Shown in pieces: positions 1,495-26,400 of a stretch of DNA of 61,274 bases. The DNA comes from a virus. Lineage: Duplodnaviria > Caudoviricetes. Under the pieces are notes generated by a model. It did not search any database. It was not told the DNA's origin and worked only from the letters and a program-made list of their open reading frames with translations. Position numbers and translations under genes: made by a program. Every line of letters starts with the position of its first letter. Within the stretch, counting starts at the first letter, position 1. The stretch spans positions 1 through 61,274 of IMG/VR virus record IMGVR_UViG_3300025769_000007. The stretch is one strand, 5' to 3'.

Positions 1495-1495
1495 A

Positions 1496-1527
1496 TTTGT
1501 ATATGTAAAATATATTTACTAATATTG
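1496..1527 (+). promoter_or_regulatory. Bacteroidota-type promoter with overlapping GTAAA-N5-TTTAC inverted repeat
   Basis: TTTG at 1496, TAATATTG at 1520-1527 (variant of TAnnTTTG), GTAAAATATATTTAC at 1505-1519. Confidence 0.55.
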
Positions 1528-1548
1528 CCTAACCAAAAACTAAAAACT

Positions 1549-1761
1549 ATGAATACACAAACAACTTTGCAAGAGGGTAAAGACTACGAGGTAGTAGTGG
1601 ATGCCTACGTTACCAACGAAGATCTAGAAGTCAATAGTATTATGTTTCATTGTAGAAAGACAATGACTGCAGTGGATATTACAGACTTTCTATACGACTA
1701 CCTAAGTGTAGATTGTATCAACGATTTAGACCAAAGAATTATTAACAACGCAAAAGACTAA
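1549..1761 (+). CDS. Early hypothetical protein
   Basis: ATG after AACCAAAAACTAAAAACT leader. Confidence 0.7.
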   Translation: MNTQTTLQEGKDYEVVVDAYVTNEDLEVNSIMFHCRKTMTAVDITDFLYDYLSVDCINDLDQRIINNAKD

Positions 1762-1765
1762 AGAC

Positions 1766-1993
1766 ATGAAGATAAGAGAACTTATAAAACAATTACAAGA
1801 GGTAGAAGACCAAGACAGAGAAGTATCTATTGTAATAGGAAACGAGGACAACAACTCAATGGTATTTGATGAGTTTGAATTACACAATACAGATAATGAT
1901 GAAACAAGTGTAGAGGTATTCTGCTTTGACAATTATATGTTTGAACAAGATTACTGCTACTCAATAAGAGATATTAACAACACAAAAGACTAA
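1766..1993 (+). CDS. Early hypothetical acidic protein
   Basis: MKIRELIKQLQE N-terminus typical of small phage proteins. Confidence 0.75.
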   Translation: MKIRELIKQLQEVEDQDREVSIVIGNEDNNSMVFDEFELHNTDNDETSVEVFCFDNYMFEQDYCYSIRDINNTKD

Positions 1994-1997
1994 CACT

Positions 1998-2162
1998 ATG
2001 GGAAAAACTAAAGAATTATTTATGGAAATGGCTCAAGGATTTATGGATGGTATAAATATAGAGAGAGAGCTAAGAGGTAGAATGGCTGATGAAGAATATC
2101 AGTACACTATATATAAAAAGAATCGTAACAAAAAAACTAAAAGCAATGGAAGAAAACAATAA
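1998..2162 (+). CDS. Small early hypothetical protein (54 aa, not in ORF track)
   Basis: MGKTKELFMEM...GRKQ* with ACTATG start. Confidence 0.6.
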   Translation: MGKTKELFMEMAQGFMDGINIERELRGRMADEEYQYTIYKKNRNKKTKSNGRKQ

Positions 2163-2249
2163 ACTTATAGCAGAATAGCAGTACCTAACATACAACAAGT
2201 ATATTATTTAGTAGTAGAATTTATTAAGGAATATAACCAAAACAACTAG
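2146..2249 (+). pseudogene. Internally deleted remnant of a small phage gene
   Basis: MEENNKLIAE* followed in another frame by AVPNIQQVYYLVVEFIKEYNQNN*; these resemble the two ends of a phage family recalled as NKLIAEFM...VVEFIK.YN. Confidence 0.55.
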
Positions 2250-2254
2250 AAATT

Positions 2255-2536
2255 ATGAGAAAAGTAACAATAACAGAACGTAGAGTATATCATAAGGTGG
2301 CTAAGATAACAATCGAAATACCAAACGATATACCATTAGAAGAAACTGATGAGTGGCTATGGGGTAATGATGCTTGGGAACAAGCCTTAGATGATAAGTT
2401 TGAAACTGCTGAACTTGAATATGGTACAGGGCTTAGAGAAGTACCTCACATGAATGAACCCGAATCAGATAGAGAAATAAGATATGATGTTATTAATGAA
2501 AAATCATTTTTCGAAAAATGGGGGGGACACTTATAA
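2255..2536 (+). CDS. Early hypothetical protein
   Basis: 93-aa ORF ending GGHL. Confidence 0.75.
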   Translation: MRKVTITERRVYHKVAKITIEIPNDIPLEETDEWLWGNDAWEQALDDKFETAELEYGTGLREVPHMNEPESDREIRYDVINEKSFFEKWGGHL

Positions 2537-2784
2537 TGGCTAAGATATATATAGACAATTCAAGGTACATGGAATTTATAGATGATGTAGCAACTATAAT
2601 AACTGAGCTTCAGTTTAGAGATGATGCTTATAAGGAAATTAAAGATGGTTTATCAGATGATACTTGTATTGTATTCACAGATGAAGCACAAGACTTGTAC
2701 AACGATACTTATGACTTAATAGAAGGCTTGTTAAATAGAAACCTAAACATACATAGTAATAACGAACTAATAAACGATAATTAA
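2536..2784 (+). CDS. Early hypothetical acidic protein
   Basis: TAATG coupling with the upstream ORF (MAKIYID...). Confidence 0.7.
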   Translation: MAKIYIDNSRYMEFIDDVATIITELQFRDDAYKEIKDGLSDDTCIVFTDEAQDLYNDTYDLIEGLLNRNLNIHSNNELINDN

Positions 2785-2785
2785 T

Positions 2786-2977
2786 ATGGCACTATACGAA
2801 TTAGAAATAAAATGGTGGGATGACCTTTGTGTTGAAACAAAGATTGTATCTACAAGTCCATCATCCGTAGATGATAATACTATCTTCTACACATTTGAAA
2901 ATGAGGATGAGATAGAATCATTTACCCTTGAAGATCCGATAAGAGAGTTTCAAGTATTGTCTTACACAAAATTATAG
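2786..2977 (+). CDS. Early hypothetical protein
   Basis: 63-aa tightly packed ORF. Confidence 0.65.
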   Translation: MALYELEIKWWDDLCVETKIVSTSPSSVDDNTIFYTFENEDEIESFTLEDPIREFQVLSYTKL

Positions 2978-2980
2978 ACT

Positions 2981-3253
2981 ATGGAAAGTAGAAAGGAATT
3001 TATAAGTAGAATGATTTGGATGTTAGCAGAGGTAGATGAGTCTGAGTTTAAAACTCTAAACTCTTTATCTCTGCTAGAGTTTCACTTAAAACAGAGAGAA
3101 TTAGACTTACTAAAGCAGACTAAAGAACTCCTCGTAAACTCTATGGAGTATAGGGCTAACAAGAGGCTTAGGTCTGGTATAGAAATAAGTTTAGGTAGGC
3201 TGATTATCCACACCCACGAAGAATTTAACGATATAATAAAAAAACTAAAATGA
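2981..3253 (+). CDS. Early hypothetical protein
   Basis: 90-aa ORF with ATGA overlap to the next gene. Confidence 0.7.
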   Translation: MESRKEFISRMIWMLAEVDESEFKTLNSLSLLEFHLKQRELDLLKQTKELLVNSMEYRANKRLRSGIEISLGRLIIHTHEEFNDIIKKLK

Positions 3254-3471
3254 TAGTGGACTTCAATAAACACACATGGGTACATCAAGGAAATATAAAC
3301 AAAGTAAAAAAACTAATTATGGATGTAGAAGAATTTCAAAGAATAAGGATAGAGGCTATGGAAAAGAAAATTAAAGACCTAGAGTTAACCATAGACCTAG
3401 ATAGGGAAATGTACAGAAGTATTATAACAAATTTAGAGGTAGAACTAGATAAATTTAAAGAAGATGAATAG
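3250..3471 (+). CDS. Hypothetical coiled-coil protein
   Basis: 73-aa ORF with overlapping stop/start. Confidence 0.65.
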   Translation: MIVDFNKHTWVHQGNINKVKKLIMDVEEFQRIRIEAMEKKIKDLELTIDLDREMYRSIITNLEVELDKFKEDE

Positions 3472-3802
3472 TCAAGTAAGAACAATTGATGTAGACCAAG
3501 TATGGATGAGGGGAGAGAAAGATCCTTGTGCTAAGTATGTTTTATACGCTAAAGTACAGAGGAAGTATATCAACCCTATAATTAATGATATAGATAGTAT
3601 ACAATCTATTTTAAAAGGTGAAAAGCTCTTTAAGTTAGATAGGGCAAGTAATAAAAATAAAATATATAACATAGTAGATGCAGTAGATAGATCTTTTAAC
3701 AATGATGATCTTGAAGAATTACTAGAAAAAGAGTTATCTTTAATAGAATTTATCTACAAAGTCTATGCAATACGAAAAAGAAATGCTGGAGAACTTGCTT
3801 AA
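3464..3802 (+). CDS. Hypothetical protein
   Basis: 112-aa ORF in operon. Confidence 0.7.
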   Translation: MNSQVRTIDVDQVWMRGEKDPCAKYVLYAKVQRKYINPIINDIDSIQSILKGEKLFKLDRASNKNKIYNIVDAVDRSFNNDDLEELLEKELSLIEFIYKVYAIRKRNAGELA

Positions 3803-4127
3803 AGATTCGGGAATTGAACACAGATTAGATAACCGAATAAGACCTAATAAGCACCCAAACATGAAACGATTAGAGGTTGCTTTAAAAGAGCATGGAGTCA
3901 ATTATATGTACTTCCATCAGACAGATAGCCTAGCAGTAACACAGGTAGATATAGGTAAACATAACGCTTTGTGTCATACACTTATGATGCCATCAGAGGA
4001 TGGTATAAGTGTTTTAATGGTAGTAAACAACGATATTGATTTAGAGTTAGTTATGGAAGGTATAAGCCAAAGCCTAGACAGAATCATACCTAAAGATATA
4101 TCGTATAATATTTTAGGAATAATATAG
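3765..4127 (+). CDS. Hypothetical protein
   Basis: 120-aa ORF in operon. Confidence 0.7.
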   Translation: MQYEKEMLENLLKDSGIEHRLDNRIRPNKHPNMKRLEVALKEHGVNYMYFHQTDSLAVTQVDIGKHNALCHTLMMPSEDGISVLMVVNNDIDLELVMEGISQSLDRIIPKDISYNILGII

Positions 4128-4133
4128 TAATAT

Positions 4134-4155
4134 GTAAAATAATTTACTATATTTG
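4134..4155 (+). promoter_or_regulatory. Promoter of the recombination/replication operon with GTAAA-N4-TTTAC operator-like repeat
   Basis: GTAAAATAATTTAC at 4134-4147 abuts the consensus -7 box TATATTTG at 4148-4155. Confidence 0.7.
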
Positions 4156-4190
4156 CATCAGAAGTTAATTAAATTTAAAAACCAAAAACT

Positions 4191-4760
4191 ATGGAAAAGT
4201 CAGAAACAATTGGCAAGTTAACCCTTGCCTTATCAAAAGTGCAGTCTCAATTAAGACCTGCTAAAGAAAACTCAAAAAACCCTTTCTTCAAGTCAAGCTA
4301 TGCCGATCTTGGATCAGTATGGGATTCTGTTCGTAAACTACTAGCAGATAATGAGTTAGCTATTATCCAAATGCCTACAGATGTAGGTGGTGTAACAACA
4401 ATCTTATCGCATTCTAGTGGAGAGTTTATATCTTCTACTATGTATATACCATCAAAGGAAGATGCTCATGGCGTAGGCTCTGCTATATCTTACGCTAGAA
4501 GATACGCACTTGCGTCTTTTGTAGGGGTGGTTACAGGTGATGATGATGGTAATGGTGCAGTTAAAGGGACACCTACTACTACATCTAAGAAATCTACATC
4601 TAAGCCTAAGCTAACTGATTCTCAGTACAAGGGTATGATGAAGGCTATCGAGGATGGTAAGGGTAGCGTTGTTGAGCAAAAGATGGGTGGTTATACCATG
4701 ACTAAGAATCAACAAGACAACCTTAACAAAGTCCTTAAAATATCTAAGACCTTAGTGTAA
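4191..4760 (+). CDS. erf: Erf-family single-strand annealing protein
   Basis: KNPFFKSSYADL, LSHSSGEFISS and GSAISYARRYAL...DDDGN motifs of ERF superfamily. Confidence 0.92.
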   Translation: MEKSETIGKLTLALSKVQSQLRPAKENSKNPFFKSSYADLGSVWDSVRKLLADNELAIIQMPTDVGGVTTILSHSSGEFISSTMYIPSKEDAHGVGSAISYARRYALASFVGVVTGDDDGNGAVKGTPTTTSKKSTSKPKLTDSQYKGMMKAIEDGKGSVVEQKMGGYTMTKNQQDNLNKVLKISKTLV

Positions 4761-5527
4761 TGAGTTTAGATAACTTTATAAAGAAGTTAGTCGATGACTC
4801 TTTTTATTACTCTGACTACGAGTTTGTAACGAACTCGCAGTTAGGGTTAATAAAGAAAGATGTCAGGACTTACAAGATGATGAGGGATAATCCCGAACTC
4901 AACAAGGAAACTATGCCTATGATCTTTGGTAGAGCATATCATGTTGCCATGTTAGAGCCTAACGAGTTTAACGACAAGGTCTTAGTATTTAATTCAGCTA
5001 CAAGGACTACTAAAGGATACAAAGAGTTTAAGGCTGATAATCCTAACGCACCTACTATAATCTTACAGAAGGAGTACGATAAGATTATGTACATGCAAGA
5101 CGTATTGTTCTCTCATAACGAGGTTAAAGACTTACTCCAAAAGGAAGGAGAGAGAGAGATAGCTAACGCTTGGAAAGATGAGGATACTAACGTGTTCTGT
5201 AAAGGTAAAGCAGATTACCGTAATGGTAAGACTTTAATAGATCTTAAAACTACTGGTGATGGTAGCCACTGGGGTTTCTCAAACTCTTGTAAGAAGTACG
5301 GTTATGATAGGCAGTCAGCCTTCTATATGGATGGTTTTGGTTGTGATGAGTTTGTATTTATAACTCAGGAGAAGGAGAGACCTTATAACGTATCTATATT
5401 TTATGCTGGTGACGAGTTCATAGAGAGGGGTAGGCAAGAGTATAAGTACCTACTAGATGTTTATAGAAGATTCTTTATAGACAACGAGGAGGTTGTAGAT
5501 GACCACTTAATAATGGAGACACTATGA
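4760..5527 (+). CDS. PD-(D/E)XK exonuclease, RecE/ExoVIII-like (DUF3799-like)
   Basis: FGRAYHVAMLEP, CKGKADY, IDLKTT, YGYDRQSAFY; coupled to erf. Confidence 0.88.
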   Translation: MSLDNFIKKLVDDSFYYSDYEFVTNSQLGLIKKDVRTYKMMRDNPELNKETMPMIFGRAYHVAMLEPNEFNDKVLVFNSATRTTKGYKEFKADNPNAPTIILQKEYDKIMYMQDVLFSHNEVKDLLQKEGEREIANAWKDEDTNVFCKGKADYRNGKTLIDLKTTGDGSHWGFSNSCKKYGYDRQSAFYMDGFGCDEFVFITQEKERPYNVSIFYAGDEFIERGRQEYKYLLDVYRRFFIDNEEVVDDHLIMETL

Positions 5528-5733
5528 CATTAAAAGAAAAATTAAAAGAAAGTAAAATATACAAGCCTTGGCTTGCAGAAAGATTAGGGTTAAGTCGTCC
5601 TACCCTAGACAAATACTTAGACAAACCTGACGAGTTTAAAGTTAAGCATCTCAGAAGAATTGCTAAGTATATAGAAACAACAGAAAGGAAGGCATTAGTT
5701 AATTATTTTATAAAAGCTGAAAGCTATGAGTAA
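5524..5733 (+). CDS. Helix-turn-helix DNA-binding protein
   Basis: WLAERLGLSRPTLDKYL HTH pattern. Confidence 0.8.
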   Translation: MTLKEKLKESKIYKPWLAERLGLSRPTLDKYLDKPDEFKVKHLRRIAKYIETTERKALVNYFIKAESYE

Positions 5734-5998
5734 CAAAACAACAGAAAAAATCTACGTAGGAAACGGAGTAGAAAAATTTGACGGAGACTTAGTTCAATTC
5801 TCTTTGAACTTGACTAAGTTAAAACAAGAAGCTGGAGATTACATCTTCGATGGTAAAACAGGTGATAAATTTATAACCTTAAAGGTTGTAAAGAAACGTA
5901 ACGGTGCTGATGATTATGGTAAGACTCATTACGTTGAGGTAGACACTTGGAAACCTGAAGTTAAGAAAGAAAAAGTAGCTGACGATTTACCATTTTAA
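5726..5998 (+). CDS. Putative single-stranded DNA-binding protein
   Basis: Acidic tail DDLPF, DDYGKTHYVEVDTWKP motif, position in recombination operon. Confidence 0.7.
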   Translation: MSNKTTEKIYVGNGVEKFDGDLVQFSLNLTKLKQEAGDYIFDGKTGDKFITLKVVKKRNGADDYGKTHYVEVDTWKPEVKKEKVADDLPF

Positions 5999-6002
5999 TA
6001 TT

Positions 6003-6028
6003 GGAGGGGAGAAATCCCCTCCCTTTTT
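6003..6028 (+). terminator. Intrinsic terminator
   Basis: GGAGGGGA-GAAA-TCCCCTCC followed by CTTTTT. Confidence 0.85.
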
Positions 6029-6056
6029 AATCTTATTAAAAATTTAAATTGTAGTT

Positions 6057-6539
6057 ATGAAAAAGTACGTTTTTTATGTTTTTTATTTTGGATTATTGGT
6101 TAATCAAAAATCGTATTCACAAACAGATTCTGATAAAGTTTTAAAAGACCTGTCTAAAGATTACATTAACTACCTTGAGTCTGAAGGCTTTCGCCCAAAG
6201 ATTGATGATGTAGGTGATGTAAGCTTTAAGTTTGAGGGGTCAACGTTTTGGGTCATGCCTTACTACTCTGATTTTTTTTCTTTGAGTAGATTTTTATCTC
6301 TTGATGAAAATCAAAAGTGCACAAAAGGTCTTATGAATATGATTAATGATTTTAATTTCGATAGAGTTAGCGATGCAGCTCGTGTTTACGATAATTGTAA
6401 AACAATTGAAATAAGATCTACAAGCCACTTGCCAAATAAAAATGATTGGAAGTATATTTTTGAACCCTCTGTGATTTGGTTGAACAACTCTTCAATTGAT
6501 TTCTCAGAAAAGTATAGGGAGTTCTTAGATAAAAACTAA
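6057..6539 (+). CDS. Exported YbjN-like domain protein (moron-like)
   Basis: Signal-like N-terminus ending SYS|Q; YLESEGFRPKIDDVGDVSFKFEG resembles the YbjN family. Confidence 0.55.
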   Translation: MKKYVFYVFYFGLLVNQKSYSQTDSDKVLKDLSKDYINYLESEGFRPKIDDVGDVSFKFEGSTFWVMPYYSDFFSLSRFLSLDENQKCTKGLMNMINDFNFDRVSDAARVYDNCKTIEIRSTSHLPNKNDWKYIFEPSVIWLNNSSIDFSEKYREFLDKN

Positions 6540-6585
6540 CTTAAAAAACAACCAAAAAACAACCAAAAAACTAACTAAAAAAACT

Positions 6586-7080
6586 ATGAAGTACAGAGTA
6601 TCAGACACAGACATTATCAGTATAGATAAGGTAGAGTTTATTGAGGTCGATGGTCGTTATATTAATTTTCATACTTCAACAAATACACACCAATCTATTT
6701 ATAATAACGATATGGAGTCAAATTGTGTTTTCAATAATATTGTTAACCATTTTGCTACTATAGATCTTAGGTTTAGTGATACTAAAAAAGTTGAGACTGA
6801 ATCTGAAAGAAAAGAAAAGGCATTTAATATGTTTTGGAATCTATACGACAAAAAGGTAGACAGACCTAACGCTAGAACAACATTTATGAACTTAACACTT
6901 ACCGAAATGGGTGAAGCCATAAAGGGAGTTAAGGATTATGTTGATTCAACGCCAGATAAAAAATATAGAAAAAATCCTAGAACTTGGTTAAATGCCAAGG
7001 GATGGGAGAACGAAATACATATAGATAAAAAGAAAACTAACCGATACGTTAAACCTAAATATATTACAGATGAAAGATAA
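6586..7080 (+). CDS. Putative replication initiator / helicase-loader-associated protein
   Basis: FNMFWNLYDKKVDR...KNPRTWLNAKGWENE motif of phage initiator C-terminal domains; overlaps dnaB. Confidence 0.7.
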   Translation: MKYRVSDTDIISIDKVEFIEVDGRYINFHTSTNTHQSIYNNDMESNCVFNNIVNHFATIDLRFSDTKKVETESERKEKAFNMFWNLYDKKVDRPNARTTFMNLTLTEMGEAIKGVKDYVDSTPDKKYRKNPRTWLNAKGWENEIHIDKKKTNRYVKPKYITDER

Positions 7081-8392
7081 TATGGATATGGAGATGAGAC
7101 TTATCGGTAAGATTATGTCTAATCCAAGAGACTATTACGATTGTCATAGCCTTATATCTGAGGAAATATTTACCGATCCTTTAAATAGAAAGATATATAA
7201 AGTTGTATCAGAAAGATTAGATAAAGGAGATAAGGCTGACATGATTGTAATATCATCTTCTATTAAAGATCCTCTTGTGGACCTCAGGGTAGCTGAGTGT
7301 ATGAGTTCTGATCATTACGCCTACATAACAAAAAACATGGTCTTATACCTATCTCAAGAGGATAAAAAGATAAGGCTTAAGAAGTTGGCAGAGCTTACCA
7401 CAAAGAAAATTGACAATGGTGATGACTTATTTAACATCATAGACTTTGTGGATGCTGAGATGAAATCTATATCTGAGATTAGAGGTAGTGATATACCTGA
7501 TATTAAAAAGCAGTTAAAGGTTTTGCATGACGATATACAAAGAAGAATGGCATCTGATAACATGGTGGGTTTACCTACAGGTTTCCAATCAGTAGATAAG
7601 TTTACTGGTGGGTGGCAAGAGACAGACTTTATTGTAATTGGTGGTGCTTCATCTATGGGTAAGACATCACTGGGTTTAGCTTTTTGTTATAACTGTGCTA
7701 AGGCTGGTATACCTGCTGCCGTATTCTCTTACGAGATGGGGGACACTCAGCTTCTTCAGAGGTTGGTTTCCCTAGAGAGTGAGGTAAATAATAGGTACAT
7801 AATGAAGGGTGCACTAGAGAGTAGTGAACTAAGTAGAGTGGATACAGCTATAGGTAAACTTGAAGGTGTTAGTCTATTTATAGACGAGTGCAAAGACTCA
7901 TCTCTTAGGTATCTTCTTAATAAGGTTAGACAATACGTTATAACTAAAGAGGTTAAGTTTGTTCTTGTGGATTACCTACAACTTGTTAAGGGTACTGGTA
8001 CCTCTAGAGAGCAAGAGGTTGCTATGGTGGCTCGTGAGCTAAAAAATCTAGCTAAGGAGCTTAATATAACAATAGTGGCTCTCTCACAGCTTAGCAGAGG
8101 TGTAGAGAGAAGAGATGGCTGTAGACCTAGCCTGTCCGATCTTCGTGAGAGTGGTGAGATAGAGCAGGCATCTGATATTGTTATGCTTGTGTATAGACCT
8201 GAGTACTACGGCATCATGACCGATGATAGTGGAAAGTCTACCGAAGGTCTTGTAGATTTAATCTTTGCTAAAGGTAGGAACATAGGTACTGGAACTTTAC
8301 CTCTAAAGTTTAAGAAAGAGTACACTAAGTTTATAGACCCTCAAGATTATACTGAGAAGTATATATCATCTAGTCCTTCAGAATCTTTTTAA
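7070..8392 (+). CDS. dnaB: Replicative DNA helicase DnaB
   Basis: Walker A GASSMGKT, FSYEM, VDYLQL, ALSQLSR, SDLRESGEIEQASD. Confidence 0.97.
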   Translation: MKDNMDMEMRLIGKIMSNPRDYYDCHSLISEEIFTDPLNRKIYKVVSERLDKGDKADMIVISSSIKDPLVDLRVAECMSSDHYAYITKNMVLYLSQEDKKIRLKKLAELTTKKIDNGDDLFNIIDFVDAEMKSISEIRGSDIPDIKKQLKVLHDDIQRRMASDNMVGLPTGFQSVDKFTGGWQETDFIVIGGASSMGKTSLGLAFCYNCAKAGIPAAVFSYEMGDTQLLQRLVSLESEVNNRYIMKGALESSELSRVDTAIGKLEGVSLFIDECKDSSLRYLLNKVRQYVITKEVKFVLVDYLQLVKGTGTSREQEVAMVARELKNLAKELNITIVALSQLSRGVERRDGCRPSLSDLRESGEIEQASDIVMLVYRPEYYGIMTDDSGKSTEGLVDLIFAKGRNIGTGTLPLKFKKEYTKFIDPQDYTEKYISSSPSESF

Positions 8393-8394
8393 TT

Positions 8395-8487
8395 ATGGAG
8401 GTAGATTTTATTTTTATTATAGATTTTATAGTAGGGGTTATATTTATTATTTGGCTTATTGAAGAACTAATTAACTCGCTAAGATGA
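8395..8487 (+). CDS. Small hydrophobic peptide (30 aa, not in ORF track)
   Basis: MEVDFIFIIDFIVGVIFIIWLIEELINSLR*, ATGA overlap with next ORF. Confidence 0.45.
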   Translation: MEVDFIFIIDFIVGVIFIIWLIEELINSLR

Positions 8488-8747
8488 GAAAAGAGATATA
8501 TCACGCCACAGTTCATTACAGATGGAGAACTTTAAGATTTGTAAAAGGAGTCGAGAAGCCTGCTAAGAAGTGGAAAAAATCTACTCACAGGACATGTATT
8601 ACTGAGCTTGATCCTGAAAAACTACAGAATGTTAAGCATTTTACAAGAGGATTAGAGATAAAACACAAATCAACTAACGATATACAAATAAAGATAGATA
8701 AGGTAACTGACTATGAGTTTATATGTATGTCCCACGATGTTTATTAA
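8484..8747 (+). CDS. Hypothetical basic protein
   Basis: 87-aa ORF in operon. Confidence 0.7.
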   Translation: MRKEIYHATVHYRWRTLRFVKGVEKPAKKWKKSTHRTCITELDPEKLQNVKHFTRGLEIKHKSTNDIQIKIDKVTDYEFICMSHDVY

Positions 8748-8758
8748 AAGATATAGAT

Positions 8759-8950
8759 ATGAAATTATATTGTAAAAATTGTGAAAAAACAATTGAAGTT
8801 AGTAAATTTACAATGAAAGTCGTTGATAATAAGGTAATTAAACCTGAGTCAATCTGCGATTGTGGTGAACAAATGAAAGACGTTTCAGAGTACAAAGGAC
8901 TTGGTGGTATTATAAAAAGACCAGGTGGTAAAGTAGGAGGTAAGATATAA
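8759..8950 (+). CDS. Zinc-ribbon protein
   Basis: MKLYCKNC...ICDCGEQM. Confidence 0.65.
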   Translation: MKLYCKNCEKTIEVSKFTMKVVDNKVIKPESICDCGEQMKDVSEYKGLGGIIKRPGGKVGGKI

Positions 8951-9216
8951 TGAAAGAAGAAAATCAATTAAACTTACTGCTATTACTAGCTACGTTTAAA
9001 AGCTTTAGTGAGCAGTTGTACAACCTAAAGGGTGAGCATTCAGGGCTGGTTAAAAAGAAGTTTAACATGCTAATGAACGCTGTAAGTAGTTACGAGAGAA
9101 CCATAGACGAAGAGTGGTTAAAAGAAAATAAGTCTGTTATTGAGGACTTAAACGACTCAGTTACTGATTTTATTTATATACTAAGAGACGAATCCATTAA
9201 ACGAAATACTAACTAA
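8950..9216 (+). CDS. Hypothetical protein
   Basis: 88-aa coupled ORF. Confidence 0.7.
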   Translation: MKEENQLNLLLLLATFKSFSEQLYNLKGEHSGLVKKKFNMLMNAVSSYERTIDEEWLKENKSVIEDLNDSVTDFIYILRDESIKRNTN

Positions 9217-9228
9217 AAACAATATAGT

Positions 9229-9414
9229 ATGGAACATGATTCAATTGAGTGGGGATGGGAAAGCCAAAGCCCACTAAACATGAGAAGTCAAGAGCATATA
9301 GCTTTTTTACTTAAAAGGTACAACGAAGGTAAACCTGAATCAGAACACGTAACAACAATGGCTCAGTTAAACAGAGCATTATTAAAAGAAGAGTCAGAAA
9401 ATTTGAATAGTTAA
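9229..9414 (+). CDS. Hypothetical protein
   Basis: 61-aa ORF with A-rich leader. Confidence 0.6.
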   Translation: MEHDSIEWGWESQSPLNMRSQEHIAFLLKRYNEGKPESEHVTTMAQLNRALLKEESENLNS

Positions 9415-9443
9415 ATTAAGTTAAACAATTAAATTAAATTAAA

Positions 9444-9710
9444 ATGGTCGTAGTAGCGATAACAGTCGTCTGCGTTATATGTATTCTTATAGCGTGGGAC
9501 ATGGTAAAGTATTCTCAAAAAATTAAAGAAAGTGAAAGACATAATAACAGAGTTCTTGAAACTATCAAAAAAGAAAAATCTAAGACTAAGCGTAGTCCAA
9601 AGATTTCTAAAGATCAAGTATCGAATAAACGTAAGTATAAGAGTGCTAAAAAGAAGGCTGTTGAATCTAAAGTAAAGAAAAATGCAGGAAGAAATAAGAA
9701 AAAAGTGTGA
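9444..9710 (+). CDS. Membrane-anchored basic protein
   Basis: N-terminal TM helix and Lys-rich tail. Confidence 0.65.
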   Translation: MVVVAITVVCVICILIAWDMVKYSQKIKESERHNNRVLETIKKEKSKTKRSPKISKDQVSNKRKYKSAKKKAVESKVKKNAGRNKKKV

Positions 9711-10041
9711 TGAGATCAGGGACTTGTTAATAGAAAAGAATAAGTCTTACGGAAACTCAGTTTTTGATAAAGGAGTTTTGTTTAATGTTGATCCTATGTA
9801 CGCTATCCAAGCTCGTATAAATGACAAGCTTAACCGTATAAAAAGTAAGGAAACCTATATGAGTGAGAATGATCTCATGGATCTTACGGGATACCTTATA
9901 TTATTACAGGTTTATATGGACGAGGTAGATAAAAGAATGAGTGAAACTATTAAGTCTGCTGAGACATATAAAGAGGGTGAAACACCATTTACTTACGAGT
10001 GGTCTACAAATGGAGAAGATGAGACTGGAACCCCGATTTGA
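9682..10041 (+). CDS. DUF1599 / nucleotide-modification-associated domain 1-like protein
   Basis: LLIEKNKSYGNS...ARINDKLNRIK...DLMDLTGYLIL. Confidence 0.75.
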   Translation: MQEEIRKKCDEIRDLLIEKNKSYGNSVFDKGVLFNVDPMYAIQARINDKLNRIKSKETYMSENDLMDLTGYLILLQVYMDEVDKRMSETIKSAETYKEGETPFTYEWSTNGEDETGTPI

Positions 10042-10462
10042 AAGTAAAGAGGATAGAGAAAGAGAGGCTGAAACTCTTCGCATCCTCCTCGAGGGAAAAG
10101 ATTTAACCTTTAAGCAGTTAGATAAGTACGCACCAGTAGATGCTGAGATTATAGATAATAAGACCATGAAGGTTGTATCTTTATGCGAAATTAAAACAAT
10201 GTCTTTAAATATGACTGACGTACAGAGAGCTAGAACTTCAGTAAGAAAGATACAGCATTGCCAGAAAGAAGCCCTTCAAAAAGAGTTACCTTTATGTATA
10301 GCTTGGAGATTTCTCGATGGAATTGGTTATATTTGGATGCACGAAATAACAAAAGCCACAGTTGAGTGGGGTGGCATGAGAAACCCACGACCAGGATCTA
10401 TATGGGATAGAGAATTGTTATTCTATATAGACCTAGATTTACTAACTATAATTAAATTTTAG
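10010..10462 (+). CDS. PD-(D/E)XK-fold nuclease-like protein
   Basis: YAPVDAEI...LCEIKT motif; start probably at 10010 or 10019 rather than 9941. Confidence 0.6.
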   Translation: MEKMRLEPRFESKEDREREAETLRILLEGKDLTFKQLDKYAPVDAEIIDNKTMKVVSLCEIKTMSLNMTDVQRARTSVRKIQHCQKEALQKELPLCIAWRFLDGIGYIWMHEITKATVEWGGMRNPRPGSIWDRELLFYIDLDLLTIIKF

Positions 10463-10464
10463 AC

Positions 10465-10656
10465 ATGAACAAGCAACAGAAAGACAGAGAACAACAGGTT
10501 AGACTATTAAAGTTTGACTGTGAAATGAGAGCTAGAGTATTAGAGATAGCCTCAGGACTACCAACAAGTAAGAACGCTAAATCTCTTTTAGAGAACGCAG
10601 ACAAGCTTGCCAAATATGTATTTGGTATACCAGATCAGCCTAAGGAAAAGAAATAA
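10465..10656 (+). CDS. Hypothetical protein
   Basis: 63-aa ORF. Confidence 0.65.
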   Translation: MNKQQKDREQQVRLLKFDCEMRARVLEIASGLPTSKNAKSLLENADKLAKYVFGIPDQPKEKK

Positions 10657-10688
10657 TTCGTATCTTGCGTGTTATAATATAGTTTAGT

Positions 10689-10961
10689 ATGGCACGAAAT
10701 AAATTAGCTGGTAAGATTAACGGTAAGAGCAAAAGCTCTAAGCATTACGCTAAAAACCCTAAGTCTAGAAAAAAGAAAAACGAATACGATAAAGAGTATT
10801 CCTCTTCTGAAGAGAGGAAAAAGTATCGTGTTAAGTTAAATCTTTTTAATAGAAAGAAAGGTAAGAAGGGTGACGGCATGGATGCTTCTCACACAAAAAA
10901 TGGTGGGCTAGTTATGGAAGGGCAGTCTAAAAATAGAGCAAGGAATAGAAATAAAAAATAA
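10689..10961 (+). CDS. Small basic protein with degenerate HNH-like motif
   Basis: GDGMDASHTKNG...SKNRARN. Confidence 0.6.
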   Translation: MARNKLAGKINGKSKSSKHYAKNPKSRKKKNEYDKEYSSSEERKKYRVKLNLFNRKKGKKGDGMDASHTKNGGLVMEGQSKNRARNRNKK

Positions 10962-10982
10962 TTATTTTCGTAACTTGCTTTA

Positions 10983-11444
10983 ATGCGATTTAAAAGACGA
11001 AAGGGAAAACAGATAACTAAAGCTAAGAAACACGTTGTAGATGGTATTACATTTGCTTCAGGACTAGAGCTGTACTGTTATAAAGCCCTAAAGAAAGCAA
11101 AGATCCCCCACGAATATGAAGGAAAGACCTTTGAGCTTGTAGAGAAATTCAAGTTCGAGGGTCTTCTCATGGATAAGGGTAAGACAAAAGGTAAAACCAC
11201 CTTTAAACAAAAGCCTGGTAACATAAGAAATATATCTTACACACCAGACTTTATTAATTTAGAAGAGGGTTTTATTATAGAAACAAAAGGTATAAGAACT
11301 CCTGAATTTAAGATGAGGTTCAAACTATTTTTAAAGTATCTTTATGATACTAATCAAAAATTAGACGTATATGTCCCATCAAATCAAAAGGAAGTTGACG
11401 CAACTGTAAACCTTATTTTAAACAGGGGTTCTTTTAAAAAATAG
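10983..11444 (+). CDS. Endonuclease I-like Holliday junction resolvase
   Basis: FASGLE, YEGK, SYTPDF, IIETKG motifs of the T7 endonuclease I-like family. Confidence 0.8.
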   Translation: MRFKRRKGKQITKAKKHVVDGITFASGLELYCYKALKKAKIPHEYEGKTFELVEKFKFEGLLMDKGKTKGKTTFKQKPGNIRNISYTPDFINLEEGFIIETKGIRTPEFKMRFKLFLKYLYDTNQKLDVYVPSNQKEVDATVNLILNRGSFKK

Positions 11445-11662
11445 CTCTCCATTTTTTTTACTTATTTATAAGTTTTTTGGATTTAATTTACAGGAGAGTT
11501 TAGTACGAGAGCAAGCTGCGTGAGTGCTGCATAGTATACGAGAGTGGGCTGCGTGAGTGCTACATATCTAAATCCTGGCTTTAAGCAATATGGGCTAGGT
11601 TGTTCTTGTATTCGGGGGGTTTTTGAGATTTGGTCGTCCATGCGGCCCCCCAATACTTTTTT
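11445..11662 (+). ncRNA. Candidate structured small RNA with tandem repeat hairpins
   Basis: Non-coding, locally GC-rich; two copies of TACGAGAG-NNN-GCTGCGTGAGTGCT-R-CATA, further hairpins and a U-tract. Confidence 0.5.
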
Positions 11663-11676
11663 AAAATAATATAGTA

Positions 11677-11832
11677 ATGTTACACGATAGAGATGAAGCT
11701 TTAAGAGAAGCGTTAAGAAAGTCAGACGAGTCTAGAGATAACCTTTTTGAATCATGGATAGTAGATCTTGTAGATCCAGAAGATGAGGACGAGTCTTGTG
11801 AAGATGGTTGTTGTGGAGATAGCTGTGAATAA
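11677..11832 (+). CDS. Small acidic Cys-rich protein (51 aa, not in ORF track)
   Basis: MLHDRDEAL...ESCEDGCCGDSCE*, TAATG coupling to phoH. Confidence 0.65.
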   Translation: MLHDRDEALREALRKSDESRDNLFESWIVDLVDPEDEDESCEDGCCGDSCE

Positions 11833-12491
11833 TGACAGATAACAAGGATAAAAAAAGACCCAAGGGTAACATTAAGTTTAATATAACCCTATCTGAAGAA
11901 CAGAAGAAGGCTAAAGAAAGTATCTTGAGCCACGCTTTTAGTTTTGTAATAGGTAAGGCTGGATCTGGTAAGACCCTTCTTGCCGTTCAAGTCGCTCTTG
12001 ACATGTTCTTTAAAAGGCAGTATAGTAAGATTATAATTACTAGGCCTACTATAGCTACTGAAGATAACGGTTTCCTCCCAGGTAGCGAGAAAGAAAAGCT
12101 TGAGCCTTGGCTTGTACCAATCATGTCAAACATGCGTAAGGTTTACAATAAGGCTGATAAGATTAATAGTATGGTTGAGAAAGGGGAGATAGAGCTTGTG
12201 TCTTTATCTCACTTTAGAGGTAGGACGTTTGACAACTCTGTAGTTATAGTAGATGAGTTTCAGAACTTAACTAAGGCTCAGTTTCGTATGGCTTTAGGTA
12301 GGCTAGGTAAAGATTCTATAATGATATTCTGTGGTGACAATCAGCAGATCGACCTTAAAGATCAGAACTACTCAGCAATACATGACGTTGCTAAAATAAA
12401 AGATAGTGATTTTGTATTCAAGGTTATACTAGAAGATAACCATAGGCATCAAGCGATAGATGACGTTCTTAAGCTACTTAGCGGCTACTAA
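11832..12491 (+). CDS. phoH: PhoH-family ATPase
   Basis: GKAGSGKT, ITRP, GFLPG, FRGRTF, VDEFQN, GDNQQID. Confidence 0.95.
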   Translation: MTDNKDKKRPKGNIKFNITLSEEQKKAKESILSHAFSFVIGKAGSGKTLLAVQVALDMFFKRQYSKIIITRPTIATEDNGFLPGSEKEKLEPWLVPIMSNMRKVYNKADKINSMVEKGEIELVSLSHFRGRTFDNSVVIVDEFQNLTKAQFRMALGRLGKDSIMIFCGDNQQIDLKDQNYSAIHDVAKIKDSDFVFKVILEDNHRHQAIDDVLKLLSGY

Positions 12492-12619
12492 TCCCAGATA
12501 ACATAGAAGCATATAACTCCAGCAAAGATCTGGATTTCGCTGTATGGCATAGATTCTGTTGGGGCAAATAATCTGAACCCAAACATAACCCCATTGAGTA
12601 ATTGTATTCCTATTTCCAT
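12488..12619 (-). CDS. Small hydrophobic protein (43 aa)
   Basis: MEIGIQLLNG...FYVIWD; promoter-like TATATTAG just upstream. Confidence 0.55.
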   Translation of the reverse strand: MEIGIQLLNGVMFGFRLFAPTESMPYSEIQIFAGVICFYVIWD

Positions 12620-12633
12620 AGAGCTAATATAGT

Positions 12634-12662
12634 AAAAAAAAAGGAGGGAACCACCCCTCCTT
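12634..12662 (-). terminator. Intrinsic terminator ending the late arm / sRNA
   Basis: Minus strand AAGGAGGG-GTGGTT-CCCTCCTT plus T-run. Confidence 0.85.
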
Positions 12663-12735
12663 TCAAACAACCAAAAAACTAATCTATGAATGCGAACAAA
12701 AAAGCAAACTGCTCCAGAATGGAGCCTTAGAAAAG
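12634..12735 (-). ncRNA. Candidate trans-acting antisense sRNA of about 100 nt
   Basis: Bounded by a TAAATTTG promoter (12741-12748) and a terminator (12634-12662); 18-nt perfect complement to leader 6557-6574. Confidence 0.6.
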
Positions 12736-12740
12736 TACTA

Positions 12741-12748
12741 CAAATTTA
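12741..12748 (-). promoter_or_regulatory. -7 promoter box TAAATTTG
   Basis: Matches TAnnTTTG; no ORF between it and the terminator. Confidence 0.6.
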
Positions 12749-12782
12749 GTAATTAATTATTTAATTATATAATGTTTGTAAA

Positions 12783-15700
12783 TTATTTAGCCTCTACGTT
12801 TATATAATCTTCTTGGTATCTAGATTTAGCTCTCTGATCTACAAGCTTTATAACTTCTTCACTAATTCTAGAGTTCCTAAATATAGCTAAAATATCATCA
12901 CCTTCTATACTGTTTAGTATACCTGCACCATAAACATCAACAAGTCTATTAACGTAGTTATCCATTTTAGAATCATAAGTAGATCCTCCAGAGTTAGACG
13001 TATTCATTAACATGTCTTGATCTTTCAAAACTTCATATCCAACTCTATCTATCATATCTTTGTAAACGTAGTAAGCCTGTATAGACATATTCTTATTTAC
13101 GTTAACTCTACTTACTCTTAACCCAAAGAAAGCTAGTACCTCATACTCAGGAACCATTTCAGAATCTCTATCCATTGAATCGTAAATTCTTTTTCCTGTT
13201 TTTAAAGCTCCAGGACCGATCTTATTACCCACGTAAGACATAACACTAGCTATCTGCATGTGAGGTTTATCTGTAGGGTTAAACACCTTATTTCCATCGT
13301 TATTTATAGCGTCCCTCAATACCTTTAAAGTCATCTCCTCTCCTAAGAATGGAGCGTAAACCTTTTCTAAAACATCCATCATGGATTCTTTACCTATCTT
13401 AGTGTTAAGATCGTTAAACATAATTCTCATTATGTCTTTCGTATAACCAACACCAGATATGCTAGAGAAGTTTATGTAATCAAAGTATTTATCTTTTTGT
13501 GTTTGACCCTCAGTTTGTCTAGAGTCAAGTTCACCTTTAGATATGTAAGATATATTTCCTGAAGCGTCCCATTCAGGCATTAAAGTTCTCATCATTCTCT
13601 CCTCAATCTTCTCATCATCCTCTCCACCTAAGCCAATCATTTGACCTAAGAACTGTGCAGTATACAACTGAATACTTTCCATTAAGTACATAGTAAATAT
13701 AGTACCTGCTATTCTTGTAGCTCCAATCTTTTTAATCTTTGAATTATCACTTCCCATCTCCTCAAATCCTAGTGCTAAAGTATTCTTAGCGTTACGAACA
13801 GATTCAGCCTGGAAAGCAACGAATGATCCAACTAAAGGAGAACGACCAAGTAATCTAATTATACGAGGAACCTCGTTGTAGTTAGGGTAAAGGTTTCTAA
13901 TGTTTTTTGCAGCCATCTCTTCAGCTGTTGAAACATCTAAACCAGCCTTTATGTATCTAGCTTTTTCAGATATAAACCCAAAGATTTTCCAAATATCATC
14001 TTCAGCCTGATAAGCACTCATAGCTTTATCATCAAATAGTTTAATAAGTTTTTTACTACCTCTACCTACTTTAGCTATTTGCTTACCAACATATCCCTTT
14101 GATTCATCTAAGTATTCTGATAAGTCAAAGTTACTATCGTATACATCGTTAGCTATACCTCTTATCTCTTGAAGTGAAGCTGAAGAGTTTACCACACCTA
14201 ACTTAACTAGCTTTGAGTATAAAGCTTCAAGCTCAGCATCCTTAAGACCTCTTACTGCGTTAAAAGATGTTTTACTATCCTTATACATTCCACCTCTAAA
14301 CCCTATATGACCATTCATGGTAGCAAAAGCACTGTTACCAATAATGTTTTTAAAGTGAGTGCCAGGATTCCACACAGTCTTCATCTTCTTATTAAATAAG
14401 ACTACCTTCATGTAGAAGTTATACCACCACTTGCTATCAAAACCGTCAGAGACCTGATTCATAACAGCAAACATCTCTTCGTCAACAAACTTACCCTCTA
14501 AAGATCCAAACTTAGATCCCTTTAACTCGTAGTAGGTATCACTAGTCTGCTCGTTAGATATAAACTTGCCATTACCAACGTCATATATTTCTCTAAACAT
14601 TCTTTCGGCAGAAACTGTTCTAGCAAGCTTACTAACTGTGTTGCTATAATTAAATAAAGGGTTATCTATTTGACCCCAAAGTTCTCTAATCTCTTCAGGT
14701 ATAACCTTCTTCTCTTTAAATATAGAGCTAACTCTGTTTAAGCCATCAAGGCTAGTTGAGTTTTTCATGTTATAAAGAAACTCTTTATCTTCTGTAATCT
14801 TTCTATAGTTAACTTCAGCTTTATCTTTTATTTTATCTTTTGACATTAAAGTTATTGGTTCCCCATTTTCATCTAACCTACCCTCTTCAACATCTTTTTT
14901 GTTTTGAGACTCAACCTCTCTGTATAAGAACTCTTTAGCTTTCTTTATTATATCGTTGTCTGTCTGCTCCCATCCTTTAACCTCAAACTGTTTGTAAGAT
15001 CTTCTAACGTAGACACCCATGTTTTCATCTACAGTAAACATAGTGCTACCCTCAATCATTTCTTCTTCTATAAGGGTTCTACTAAGTTGATCTATGTGTA
15101 TTCTCATATCCATAAGAATAGACTTAATTTCTGAGTCTTCCATGGATCTAATCTCATCCATGTTATGAAGTAGATCGTTTATTTGACCTGATGTAAAGTC
15201 AGTACCTTCTAAAGCTTTCTTTAACGCTTTACTGTTTTCTGAAACTCTAAGCAACTCAGCGTTAAGATTACCTCTACTAAGTACCATTATCTCTTTAATC
15301 TCTTCGTTAGAGTGAGTGCCAAATGGCTTACCTAAAAGTTGAGACAATCTTATTTCATATTCTTTACCTTTATCAAATCCTGCTTTAGATAACTTTCCAG
15401 TTAAATACTTTCCTGCTTTATAATCAGCCTCAATAACTTTATCAGCAATATCAAAAGCTATAGTTGTTAACCCCGAAGTGTATACGTTAGTCTCTCCTTC
15501 TGCTTGAGGAGCCTGCATTCTAATATCAACAACAGGTCTAGCCATCTCAATCTTTCTTTGTCTTCTAGCTTGAGTTGTACCTTCACTTAATTTTTCTCCT
15601 GTTCTAGAATCTATTAAGAACTTATCAGCTAAGTTAAGTTCATCCCAAACTTCTGAAGCGTCAACAGACTCATCAAAGATCATTAAAGGCTCTCCCTTAA

Positions 15701-23413: not shown

Positions 23414-26400
23414 TTATTTATTACTAAGCTCACTCTTGTCTACATCTACGTTTGCAGCGTACAAATTAAATTTGTATTTAGACTGATACCAGTGAGATGT
23501 AAGGATTGTTTTAAGGTAGTGACCTTTTAGCTTCTCACCGTCTATAAGACCCTCCTTAACTATAAAGTAAAACTTATTACCTTGTATATCGTTGTAATTA
23601 TCTGATATAAATTCAACCCTTTCCTGTGTCACGTTGTAAACCCATCCTGCGTGTTTAGTTTCTCCTGTCTTAACATCCATACAATGCAAAGAGTATTCAC
23701 ATGGGAAAACAGAAGACCTAGACCTAGATGATGTTCCATTTTTAGCTACAAAAATTCCTCTAGGTGGATTTACTTTCTGAATATTTAAATTATTTATATA
23801 AAACTCAGGTTGATTTTCTTCAGATCTTATATATAAATAAGGGTCAATGTTTTTGTCACCAGAGTTTAACTCAATTTCATGATTTTGTAAGTAATTTGTA
23901 TTGTCAATTGAAATAGTCTGAAATGACGAACCTAGTTTACCAGATTGATTAACTCTATCTCCAATTCTAAAAGACAAAGAAACTTTACTTCTGTCTAATA
24001 CATCTATTAAGTTTAATCTAAAAGAAATTATATACTTAGAATTAGACTTAAAGTCTATAGTAGAACTTGTCCTTACTTGAGATGAAGAATTTTGTTTGTC
24101 AAAATACAAAACGTTACCACTTCTTTTTTTGTTTTTTTGAACTTTAACTCCTGAATCTACAACAGTCCAATCAGAAGAGTTCGCAAAATTACCTTTAGAA
24201 GATAAGATGTCTTTACCTTTATTGAGGCCACCATTAAGATCAAAAACTTCTTCAAACTTAAAATCTTCTCTAATATCTAAAATTCCGTACACTCCACCAG
24301 GAATTATATTAGAAACAGTAGTAGATTTACTACCCATAAAAGGAAGACTGTTAGATTTAAAATCACCTTTAAGGATAAAATTAGAACCATAACTACTTGC
24401 ACTAAACATACCTAATCCAAAAATATTAGAAGCGTCTCCATCAAAATCACCTTGAAAGTCACCATACTCATTTACGTTAAACTTGCTTGGAGCAAAAGGA
24501 ATTTGAGAATATTGAACGCCCTCCTTTGTTTTATAATCTATAACATCAATTCTATTGTTTTTTGACCTGTAGTTAACGGAGTTGTCTAAAATAACTTTTT
24601 GTTTTGTTAAGATACTTTTAACTACATTGTACTGAGGACTTAAATTTTCTGCATTATAGAACCTAATTAAATCACCTGGAGATAAATCTTTATAAAAGTT
24701 AGAGCTTGGAGATCCATAAAGGCAGTAAGGAGAGTCTTCTTTCGTTGATATAGTTCCGTCAACTTTTTTATAACCTATCTGAGTAGATACAACAGAGTCA
24801 TAAGAGTTATTGTATTGACCCATATTAGTAGACATGTTAGTTAAAAGCTTTGTGTCACTTTCTAACGATATGCTATTATAGGTTTTTACAGATGATGGGT
24901 CTGAGTTAAACGGAAACTCTATATTAGAGTTGTATCTAACACCATAGAAAGTATTAAAATTACTTTTATTTTCAGTGTTGTGTCTGTATATTTTACCATT
25001 TTTATACGTAACAAACTGTCTATTTATTTTGCCATAAAACTCTGGTTTATAGCTATAAAAAGATGTCCACTTTTTTAAAGTGTCATTAAAAGCTATAGTT
25101 TTAGCAGGGTCAAAAACTGCAGCATCTTGATTACTAACTAAACTGTAAGACTCGTCAAAATTAACAGAATCAAATCCCCAAAATCCAGAATTATTATAAT
25201 CTTCAGTTTTTAATATAGCTGGTAGAGTAACTATATACTCATCATACTTAGGATCGTAGCCAGCAACAATTTTAAGGCTTTCAAATTCTTGATCTATATA
25301 CACTTGACCTTTATCTCTAATATAATCAGACAATCCATAGTCAGAGATTCTTGTAATACCATCTCCGCCAAGCCTTAATATAGAACCTCTCTTTATGTCT
25401 ACAAAATAAAACCTATCATTATTCTCAACTATACTTTCAGGGTTGAGGCTACAACCATTCTCTGCAGAATACACCTGAGCATAATCAGCAAGTATATCTT
25501 TAGATAGCGTTAGATTAGAGTTACCATCAGCATAATTAACTATATTTTTACCAACCAAAGCTCTACCTACTCTATTCTCATGAAATATCAAAAGGTCATC
25601 ACCTTTAATCATTAAAGATTGTATTGACCCAAAGTCTTGATTGTAGTCGTAGTATGGAGATGTTGCCATATCAAAAGTACTAAGACCATTAAAATTAGCC
25701 GTACCTTGAAAAACATCAGAGTAGTATACTGAGGCTGACAACCTTCTCTCTTCAGAATAAGGATTTACTATATTGACTCTACCCTTATCCCAGTTGTCAG
25801 AATTATAGAAATCTGTTAGGTAATAACTCTCGCAAGCAAAAGCAACTTGTTCAACCCCCGAAGTTAGGTTCCCATCACTTTCAACACGTTTTTCATGATA
25901 AGGAACCATAACCCTTCTTCTAGTGTAAACATCACCATGAAGTAAAGTTCCAGCAGCATAGTTTGTAGTTTGGTTTCCACTATCATCAATAGGTCCATTT
26001 AGACCATCTATAGCTGTAACCTCCATTCTAGACTCTTCGTCAAAAAAGTAATCAGAACCTTGCCCCTGATGAGACCTAAAATCAGTTCCTGGATTCTCTA
26101 TCTCAAACTTTTCTCCTACCTCATAAAACAAACCAGAAACCTCTGATTGTATAGATTTTTTAGGTCTATATATTTCTACTATAAGTCTATTATAGCCGTT
26201 ATGTGAAAAATCATAGTCAGTATGATCAACATCAGCATGATCAATAGCTATACTACCATCAATAGTTCCATTATTTGCTGTAGAAAAATCTATATCGTTA
26301 CCAGCATCTGTAGGACTATCTATAACAATGTAAAATCCTGGAATACGATCAGATCCACCAACAGCATCCTGAATCTCCTCTTGAGTGTAAAAATCATAAG

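Follow-up and report, generated by a model that had tools for sequence, protein, structure and literature searches.

What is encoded in the short gap in which the early and late genes of a marine phage converge? The window considered here, i.e., the whole stretch of DNA that was analyzed, is a complete virus record of 61,274 bp (IMGVR_UViG_3300025769_000007, ~34% G+C). Its early-type genes lie on the plus strand (1-12491), and a long minus strand block runs from 54139 down to 12783. In the convergent gap between early and late genes (12492-12782) sits a unit that an earlier note had described as a small RNA (sRNA) antisense to the translation-start region of the replication initiator and of other early genes. 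On the basis of its anatomy, the unit is a good candidate for a discrete minus strand gene of a small non-coding RNA, the transcript being predicted from the DNA. That this RNA would silence early genes of the phage is a more tentative proposition.

Read along the minus strand, the unit is composed of a −7 promoter box, a 15-nt hairpin, a U-rich stretch, and a strong terminator, with ~100 nt enclosed (Table 1). Transcription would start near 12735. The terminator, GAAAGGAGGGGTGGTTCCCTCCTTTT followed by further T (12664-12639), has the 11 pairs and the T-run of an intrinsic terminator. This site and the 15-nt hairpin (12725-12711) are the sole terminator-like sites in 11500-14000, and the terminator of the unit is also the only one of the late operon, which ends at 12783. 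A 107-nt stretch of the unit folds with a z of −4.0 relative to shuffled sequences, and none of 200 shuffles folds equally well. The minus strand is taken to be the coding strand, as the T-run is found on its side only and as both the 5′ hairpin and the terminator loop have G-U pairs that are possible on no other strand.

No conserved open reading frame (ORF) lies inside the unit. A plus strand ORF of 14 codons (12686-12730) is not maintained in relatives: about half of the lineages lack its ATG or have it mutated, and its peptide is nowhere conserved. The promoter, the strong terminator, the hairpin, and the ~100 nt without a credible ORF that the earlier note had placed on the minus strand are borne out by the sequence, the terminator scan, and the relatives. 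However, a conserved ORF of 43 amino acids (43-aa ORF; 12619-12488, minus strand) just past the terminator had been missed, and the label “virion gene” for the upstream 2612-aa ORF, the final member of the late block, is unsupported, as protein searches yield no assignable function for it. An AU-rich body without structure, set between a promoter and an intrinsic terminator, has the look of an sRNA gene in Bacteroidota. According to excerpts of PMC7366714, the same features are the criteria for “high-confidence” intergenic sRNAs in B. thetaiotaomicron, and TAnnTTTG is the −7 promoter consensus of Bacteroidota.

The unit is conserved among related viral contigs. A search with PhoH yields 80 IMG/VR loci, ~26 of which share the junction of the unit; loci with a differing gene order were left out of the junction comparison. 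A search for the exact terminator hairpin returns 36 viral contigs, from which 24 distinct versions of the unit were collected and aligned. All 24 keep a TAnnTTT(G/A) box 45-82 nt ahead of the terminator (23/23 in the related-loci count). Nine different −7 boxes are found among the related loci, with TA and TTT fixed and the two intervening positions free. The terminator stem harbors compensatory variants (GGAGGA/TCCTCC and GGGGGA/TCCCCC), and the T-run is kept in all relatives. A few bases ahead of the stem, UUUUUGGUU is nearly invariant in the aligned versions, and this block has a mean predicted unpaired probability >0.5 in 23 of the 24.

The rest of the unit varies in sequence and length (60-104 nt). 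Most versions span 60-79 nt; the window version and its closest relatives span 95-104 nt and have an extra 5′ hairpin. In the seven versions closest to the window (type A/B), two pairs of the stem of this hairpin co-vary (CG in four and UA in three; UA in five, AU in one, and CG in one), and one further pair is A-U or G-U on the minus strand only. Lineages outside type A/B have a different 5′ hairpin or none.

The body of the unit (12665-12710) is the reverse complement of an early-gene leader plus its start codon. The 18-nt sequence AAACAACCAAAAAACTAA occurs exactly at 12665-12682 and at 6557-6574, in the leader of the initiator, with a copy bearing two mismatches at 6546-6563, and CTATGAA occurs at both 12684-12690 and 6584-6590. 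All sequence matches quoted in the earlier note are found where it had placed them, and its concern that low-complexity words may match by chance has been addressed with dinucleotide shuffles. At least three matches to AAACAACCAAAAAACTAA at ≤3 mismatches are found in just 1 of 100 shuffles (mean 0.32). The window has five copies of AACCAAAAA, all on the plus strand (1531, 4180, 6550, 6561, and 12669), four in early leaders and one in the unit; this number is reached in 1 of 100 shuffles (mean 1.46 copies). Chance as the source of the repeat is therefore rejected, and the match between leader and unit is more than chance.

The motif is restricted to leaders. All five copies of AACCAAA on the plus strand of 1-12491 lie ≤45 nt upstream of an early start codon, with none in early coding sequence, and the leaders that bear them belong to the genes at 1549, 2255, 4191 (erf), and 6586 (initiator, two copies). 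In six genomes pooled, 33 of 51 copies are in leaders, although leaders make up only ~9-12% of the sequence, and the word is kept in the erf and initiator leaders of all six. In antisense, the unit thus mirrors the “AACCAAAA...ACUAUGAA” leader common to erf, the initiator, and two small early ORFs. In many lineages, it carries UUCAUAG besides UUUUUGGUU, and the core conserved across lineages comprises 8-9 nt only.

The likeness to the initiator extends beyond the leader. In relatives, the sequence directly ahead of the initiator gene forms a plus strand module made up of a terminator hairpin, a T-run, a leader rich in AACC, and the ATG, and 50-60 nt of the unit align with the hairpin, leader, and ATG of this module in L004, L007, L055, and L058. 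Because the alignment covers the whole module, the RNA would be antisense to the entire 5′ region of the initiator mRNA. In the window, a 160-aa ORF (6057-6539) separates the terminator hairpin (6003-6022) from the leader of the initiator. This ORF is missing from L004, a close relative, and looks like a gene insertion at the joint of the module; the window also has the leader repeat AACAACCAAAA in duplicate. At 60536-60578, an A-run, the GGGGGGAAAAATCCCCCC hairpin, and a TTAACC-type leader run up to the ATG of a real plus strand gene (60576-60836), and leaders nearly identical to this one are present at 60840-60867 and ahead of 61041.

Duplex prediction between the body and 71 start regions ranks the initiator first (−28.9 kcal/mol), and the eight strongest predicted targets are all early genes. 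As a control, the RNA body was shuffled 575 times with its dinucleotide composition preserved. The mean pairing energy of the early genes is reached by 3 of these shuffles, and the count of seven sites at ≤−20 kcal/mol by 27. The excess of pairing over composition-matched shuffles is modest, so energy alone proves little; an RNA rich in U will pair with A-rich leaders regardless of the order of its bases. When the whole module is compared, the unit is more similar to its own than to foreign modules (31.6 versus 28.3; permutation p of 0.017 for 11 lineages and of 0.039 for 10).

GibS and FopS are the characterized base-pairing sRNAs of Bacteroidota in the excerpted accounts of PMC7366714 and PMC11697453, where both are described as binding beside start codons and blocking translation, and as having sigma-ABfr promoters and a single-stranded 5′ stretch with a terminator. 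As excerpted from PMC11697453, FopS sRNAs are ~65-70 nt long, have canonical sigma-ABfr promoters, and consist of a single-stranded 5′ stretch and a terminator. They form an RbpB-bound family that binds beside the start codon of susC-type mRNAs and blocks translation. One member is derived from a 3′ untranslated region (UTR), and a FopS sequence is noted in one Bacteroides phage (PMC11697453).

No Rfam family reaches threshold with the unit. In the three versions tested, FopS (RF04319) ranks first or second among the families by bit score, on the minus strand, and the alignments span the full model with UUCAUaG, GGUU, and the terminator in common. The box TAAATTTG agrees with the TAnnTTTG at −7 of the sigma-ABfr promoters of FopS, and the length of FopS (~65-70 nt) is comparable to that of most phage versions (60-75 nt). 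Both FopS and GibS block starts in a phylum without Shine-Dalgarno use, and the unit is likened to them by sequence and by the folds of its 24 versions, which agree with the FopS architecture. In contrast to the 12-15 FopS paralogues per Bacteroides genome, the phage unit is a single copy: with a model built from the unit, a single strong copy scores 69.3 bits in the window, besides a weak antisense match at 60529-60593 (27.3 bits). The unit also differs in its occurrence in marine phage contigs rather than gut Bacteroides, and in its predicted targets, which are early genes of the phage itself. The R1/R1′ 5′ seed of FopS is not conserved in the phage unit beyond UUCAUaG. On paper, the unit works like an RNA of the FopS/GibS type; it is not filed as a FopS member because its scores are below threshold, a hidden Markov model (HMM) search with masked terminators is negative, and only one copy is present.

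The exact phage hairpin is also found in 21 genome contigs, 13 of them from Bacteroidota, which is near the chance count for an 18-mer by the authors' estimate. In Bacteroidales metagenome-assembled genomes (MAGs), the same hairpin closes small units with −7 boxes, some of them in tandem, that score 27.7-33.3 bits against FopS, below the cut-off. These units (L123 6350-7000, three in tandem; L129 6737-7123, two; L135 5689-5758; L119 5360-5426; and L137) have a body of the form ...GGUUUUUCAUA(A/G)GUAA...AGGUUAGGU..., followed by the phage-type terminator hairpin, and probably represent FopS-like sRNAs that have escaped annotation.

Duplicated or overlapping sequences are also the targets of several phage antisense RNAs, among them c4 of P1/P7, the CI RNA of P4, sar of P22, and OOP of lambda. 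They shut down early, replication, or anti-repressor functions, and their genes copy or overlap the target leader. All are from Proteobacteria, where they act at Shine-Dalgarno-dependent sites or on transcription termination, mostly in temperate-phage immunity. The unit resembles them in that its complementarity also stems from a leader copy. Unlike theirs, its would-be target is an A-rich leader without a Shine-Dalgarno sequence that is common to several early genes. The unit is also akin to 3′-UTR-derived or terminator-embedded sRNAs, as it occupies the 3′ end of the late operon and has the terminator in common with it; therefore, the late mRNA would carry the same anti-leader sequence. In contrast to 3′-UTR-derived sRNAs, it has its own conserved −7 box between the stop codon of the late gene and the RNA body. 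In the literature, judged on titles and abstracts, no characterized sRNA of a Bacteroidota phage was found.

On the proposed mechanism, the host RNA polymerase would start ~6 nt past TAAATTTG, late-operon transcripts would also enter the unit, and transcription would end at the GGAGGGGUGGUUCCCUCC-U9 terminator, with a product of ~100 nt in the window and of 60-75 nt in most relatives. The RNA would then pair across the A-rich leader and start codon of the erf, initiator, and small-ORF mRNAs and block the loading of ribosomes. The transcript, its late timing, its pairing in vivo, the repression, and the exclusion of related phages that the earlier note had suggested are predictions made from sequence. 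A plausible reading, held with somewhat less than even confidence, is that a minus strand RNA is transcribed from a promoter of its own, is also present at the 3′ end of late-operon mRNA, and pairs with the AACCAAAA/AUG early starts so as to block initiation in the manner of FopS and GibS. A more elaborate version is possible but rather doubtful. In it, a clade of marine Bacteroidota phages has a dedicated FopS-like RNA that was born as an antisense copy of the “terminator-leader-start” module of the initiator, and whose seed UUUUUGGUU and anti-AUG switch off the early genes with AACCAAAA leaders (erf, initiator, and small ORFs). Because the leader motif is common to relatives, the RNA might act on co-infecting related phages as well.

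RNA regulators in Bacteroidota are barely charted. If the unit is made and represses as proposed, the timing of the early genes would be set by an RNA that pairs with A-rich starts without Shine-Dalgarno sequences, and an RNA-based temporal switch would exist in a phylum that does without Shine-Dalgarno translation. Inverse transcription of a duplicated target leader would then be a route for the birth of a regulator, and the compact pair of seed and leader could serve work in Flavobacteriia and Bacteroides.

Several observations weigh against early-gene repression by the unit. The best pairing energy is reached by 13 of the 575 shuffles and the second-best by 52. The cross-genome matrix of seeds and start regions is not diagonal, such that foreign leaders pair as well as own leaders, and co-variation with the leader only is not significant (mean score of 11.5 for own and 10.5 for foreign leaders, p 0.068). 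The preference for the own module is absent in five lineages (L008, L009, L026, L051, and L054), and lineage-specific co-variation of the unit with the initiator leader is weak, with a p that depends on how the test is defined. That early genes share a leader, as the earlier note had proposed, is upheld by AACCAAA, found in early leaders in 5/5 cases, but the 18-nt identity is specific to the clade of the window, shrinking to 14 nt in L004 and to no more than 9-12 nt in other lineages. A canonical −33 TTTG at 19 nt is seen in L005 and L054 only. The FopS scores of 18.8 bits (window), 22.2 bits (L055), and 22.1 bits (L058) lie far below the gathering score of 56, and an HMM (nhmmer) of cellular FopS-like 5′ parts, with terminator hairpins masked, does not find the phage units. 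RNA data consist of five runs with small shares, all as contigs; in four metatranscriptome runs, 12504-12670 is uncovered and the flanking genes appear in pieces only, a result that is uninformative either way.

Three further points on the same side concern the surroundings of the unit: the 43-aa ORF adjoins it in nearly all contigs, the module at 60536 is of the same type but serves a real gene, and in L091, L096, and L105, a (U)UUGGUU word also stands ahead of this hairpin, at the 3′ end of a protein gene, another gene, and a tRNA cluster, respectively. Because word and hairpin recur in other contexts, the conservation of UUUUUGGUU may reflect a portable terminator cassette rather than a seed. 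The sRNA interpretation retains a conserved minus strand unit, its likeness to FopS and GibS, and a leader-restricted motif; on the other side of the ledger are a pairing energy barely above that of shuffles and the weak co-variation.

The constant neighborhood of the 43-aa ORF makes an attenuator a serious rival, albeit an unlikely one. The unit would be a 5′ leader with an attenuating terminator, its promoter would serve the expression of the 43-aa ORF, and the short RNA would arise as a by-product with no action in trans. The 43-aa protein (MEIGIQLL...WD) is 51-100% identical in relatives and has no Pfam or PHROG match. Its ORF begins ~15 nt past the U-run in the window and 18-23 nt past the hairpin in almost every contig with the unit. 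No promoter fits between the U-run and its ATG, so the ORF would have to be reached by read-through of the terminator. In L015, where the ORF is inverted to the plus strand, the −7 box is degenerate (TAACTTAG), which likewise favors the attenuator. Yet the unit persists beside the inverted ORF of L015 and without any downstream ORF in L094. The minimum-free-energy fold includes the terminator in all 24 versions, with no competing antiterminator helix, a result that leaves room for antitermination mediated by protein or RNA. The antisense leader copy in the body and a UUUUUGGUU block as conserved as the stem are left unexplained by an attenuator.

The inversion of the 43-aa ORF onto the plus strand is seen in L012 and L015, the only two contigs returned by a pattern search for this arrangement, with weaker partial similarity on the plus strand in L016-L019. 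A type I toxin-antitoxin pair was also considered for RNA and ORF and is rejected: the two are in tandem on the same strand, and only ~8 pairs are possible between them (UUCAUAGA with UCUAUGGA, read by eye). The hydrophobic stretches of the protein, just 13-14 residues long, also weigh against a type I toxin.

The paralogy with the initiator module can alternatively be read with no regulatory RNA at all. The unit would be the late-operon terminator only, lying beside a paralogue of the plus strand “terminator hairpin + leader + ATG” module, with the likeness kept by recombination or by a portable cassette. Such an origin accounts for the 50-60 nt of paralogy in L004, L007, L055, and L058, for the same type of module ahead of real genes (at 60536, and the initiator in relatives), for UUGGUU beside the hairpin in unrelated contexts, for the gene at 6057-6539 inserted exactly at the module boundary, and for the lack of a genome-specific pairing advantage. 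A relic should decay, however, and the block, the −7 box, and the 5′ end of the unit are kept even where the small protein is only 51-65% identical; nor does a plus strand gene follow the unit in any version. The probability of a mere terminator is accordingly put low. If the unit were no more than that, it would still mark recombination joints of this phage group.

A FopS-like sRNA might instead be aimed at host mRNAs, with their A-rich Bacteroidota start regions, rather than at early genes of the phage. The FopS architecture and the position of FopS as the top, sub-threshold Rfam match are compatible with such targets, as are the cellular units with an identical hairpin in Bacteroidales MAGs and the generic nature of the pairing with phage leaders. 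As excerpted from PMC11697453, the susC-type mRNAs repressed by FopS members are those of the host, and one Bacteroides phage has a FopS sequence. The 18-nt identity and the 50-60 nt of module paralogy point to the phage's own initiator, which renders host targets improbable. Least credible is a function of the plus strand or of the DNA itself, with AACCAAAA as a protein site (for a translational repressor or a replication or transcription factor) or as the leader of a micro-ORF: the motif is restricted to leaders and stands in tandem ahead of the initiator, and an ATG lies at a leader-like 17 nt from AACC, but the micro-ORF is not conserved and is rejected on its own account, the plus strand has neither a U-run past the hairpin nor a conserved promoter, and the G-U pairs fit the minus strand only.

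Table 1. Positions of the minus strand unit, its predicted targets, and neighboring genes in the window.
Feature	Coordinates	Strand	Basis or remark
Bacteroidota-type −7 box TAAATTTG	12748-12741	-	read directly; consensus TAnnTTTG
5′ hairpin GCTCCATTCTGGAGC = GCUCC-AUUCU-GGAGC	12725-12711	-	sequence and terminator-type scan
Single-stranded U-rich body with anti-start CAU (complement of 12686-12688)	12665-12710	-	sequence, folding
Conserved block UUUUUGGUU, complement of AACCAAAAA	12669-12677	-	24-version alignment
Intrinsic terminator GGAGGG(G)/(U)CCCUCC, loop UGGU, U9	12634-12664 (hairpin 12643-12660)	-	terminator scan
43-aa ORF	12619-12488	-	protein-level conservation
Initiator leader and start codon	6546-6590	+	predicted main target; paralogue of unit
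erf leader AACCAAAAACTATG	4180-4193	+	predicted target
Leader of 70-aa early ORF 1549-1761, AACCAAAAACTAAAAACTATGAAT	1531-1554	+	predicted target
Leader of early ORF 2255-2536, AACCAAAAC...ATG	2235-2257	+	predicted target
Erf	4191-4760	+	early region
Exonuclease	4760-5527	+	early region
Replication initiator	6586-7080	+	early region
DnaB	7070-8392	+	early region
PhoH	11832-12491	+	last early gene before convergent gap

In addition to the proteins in Table 1, the plus strand early region encodes a resolvase-like protein. The best matches of DnaB are only ~32-35% identical, and no close isolate by DNA is present in the phage collection searched. TAnnTTTG promoter-like boxes precede several genes on both strands, and the genes of the window are therefore read as transcribed by the polymerase of a Bacteroidota host. 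A virion RNA polymerase as the source of an early-promoter motif was considered and dropped: the evidence for it comprises DFDxD-type motifs and a sub-threshold muzzle-domain match, with no PDB sequence match. The protein concerned, a minus strand 1946-aa ORF (23414-29254), harbors DFDLD at residue 664 and DFDGD at residue 1603, and its sub-threshold match is to the C-terminal domain of the crAss-virus muzzle. It may be a virion-packaged polymerase or a cargo protein. For crAss-like phages, early transcripts are reported to lack a common upstream motif.

No tRNA or tmRNA gene was found in the window. Two long stretches are free of ORFs (940-1080 and 58900-60190), neither with a tRNA gene, and one of them has two G+C-rich hairpins (60024-60047 and 60082-60099). 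The window ends in an exact direct terminal repeat of 127 nt (1-127 = 61148-61274), into which the early ORF 61041-61262 extends. A minus strand 1062-aa ORF (49138-52326) contains 16 copies of a 63-nt repeat core within 49555-52095, mostly at a spacing of 78 nt (26 codons).

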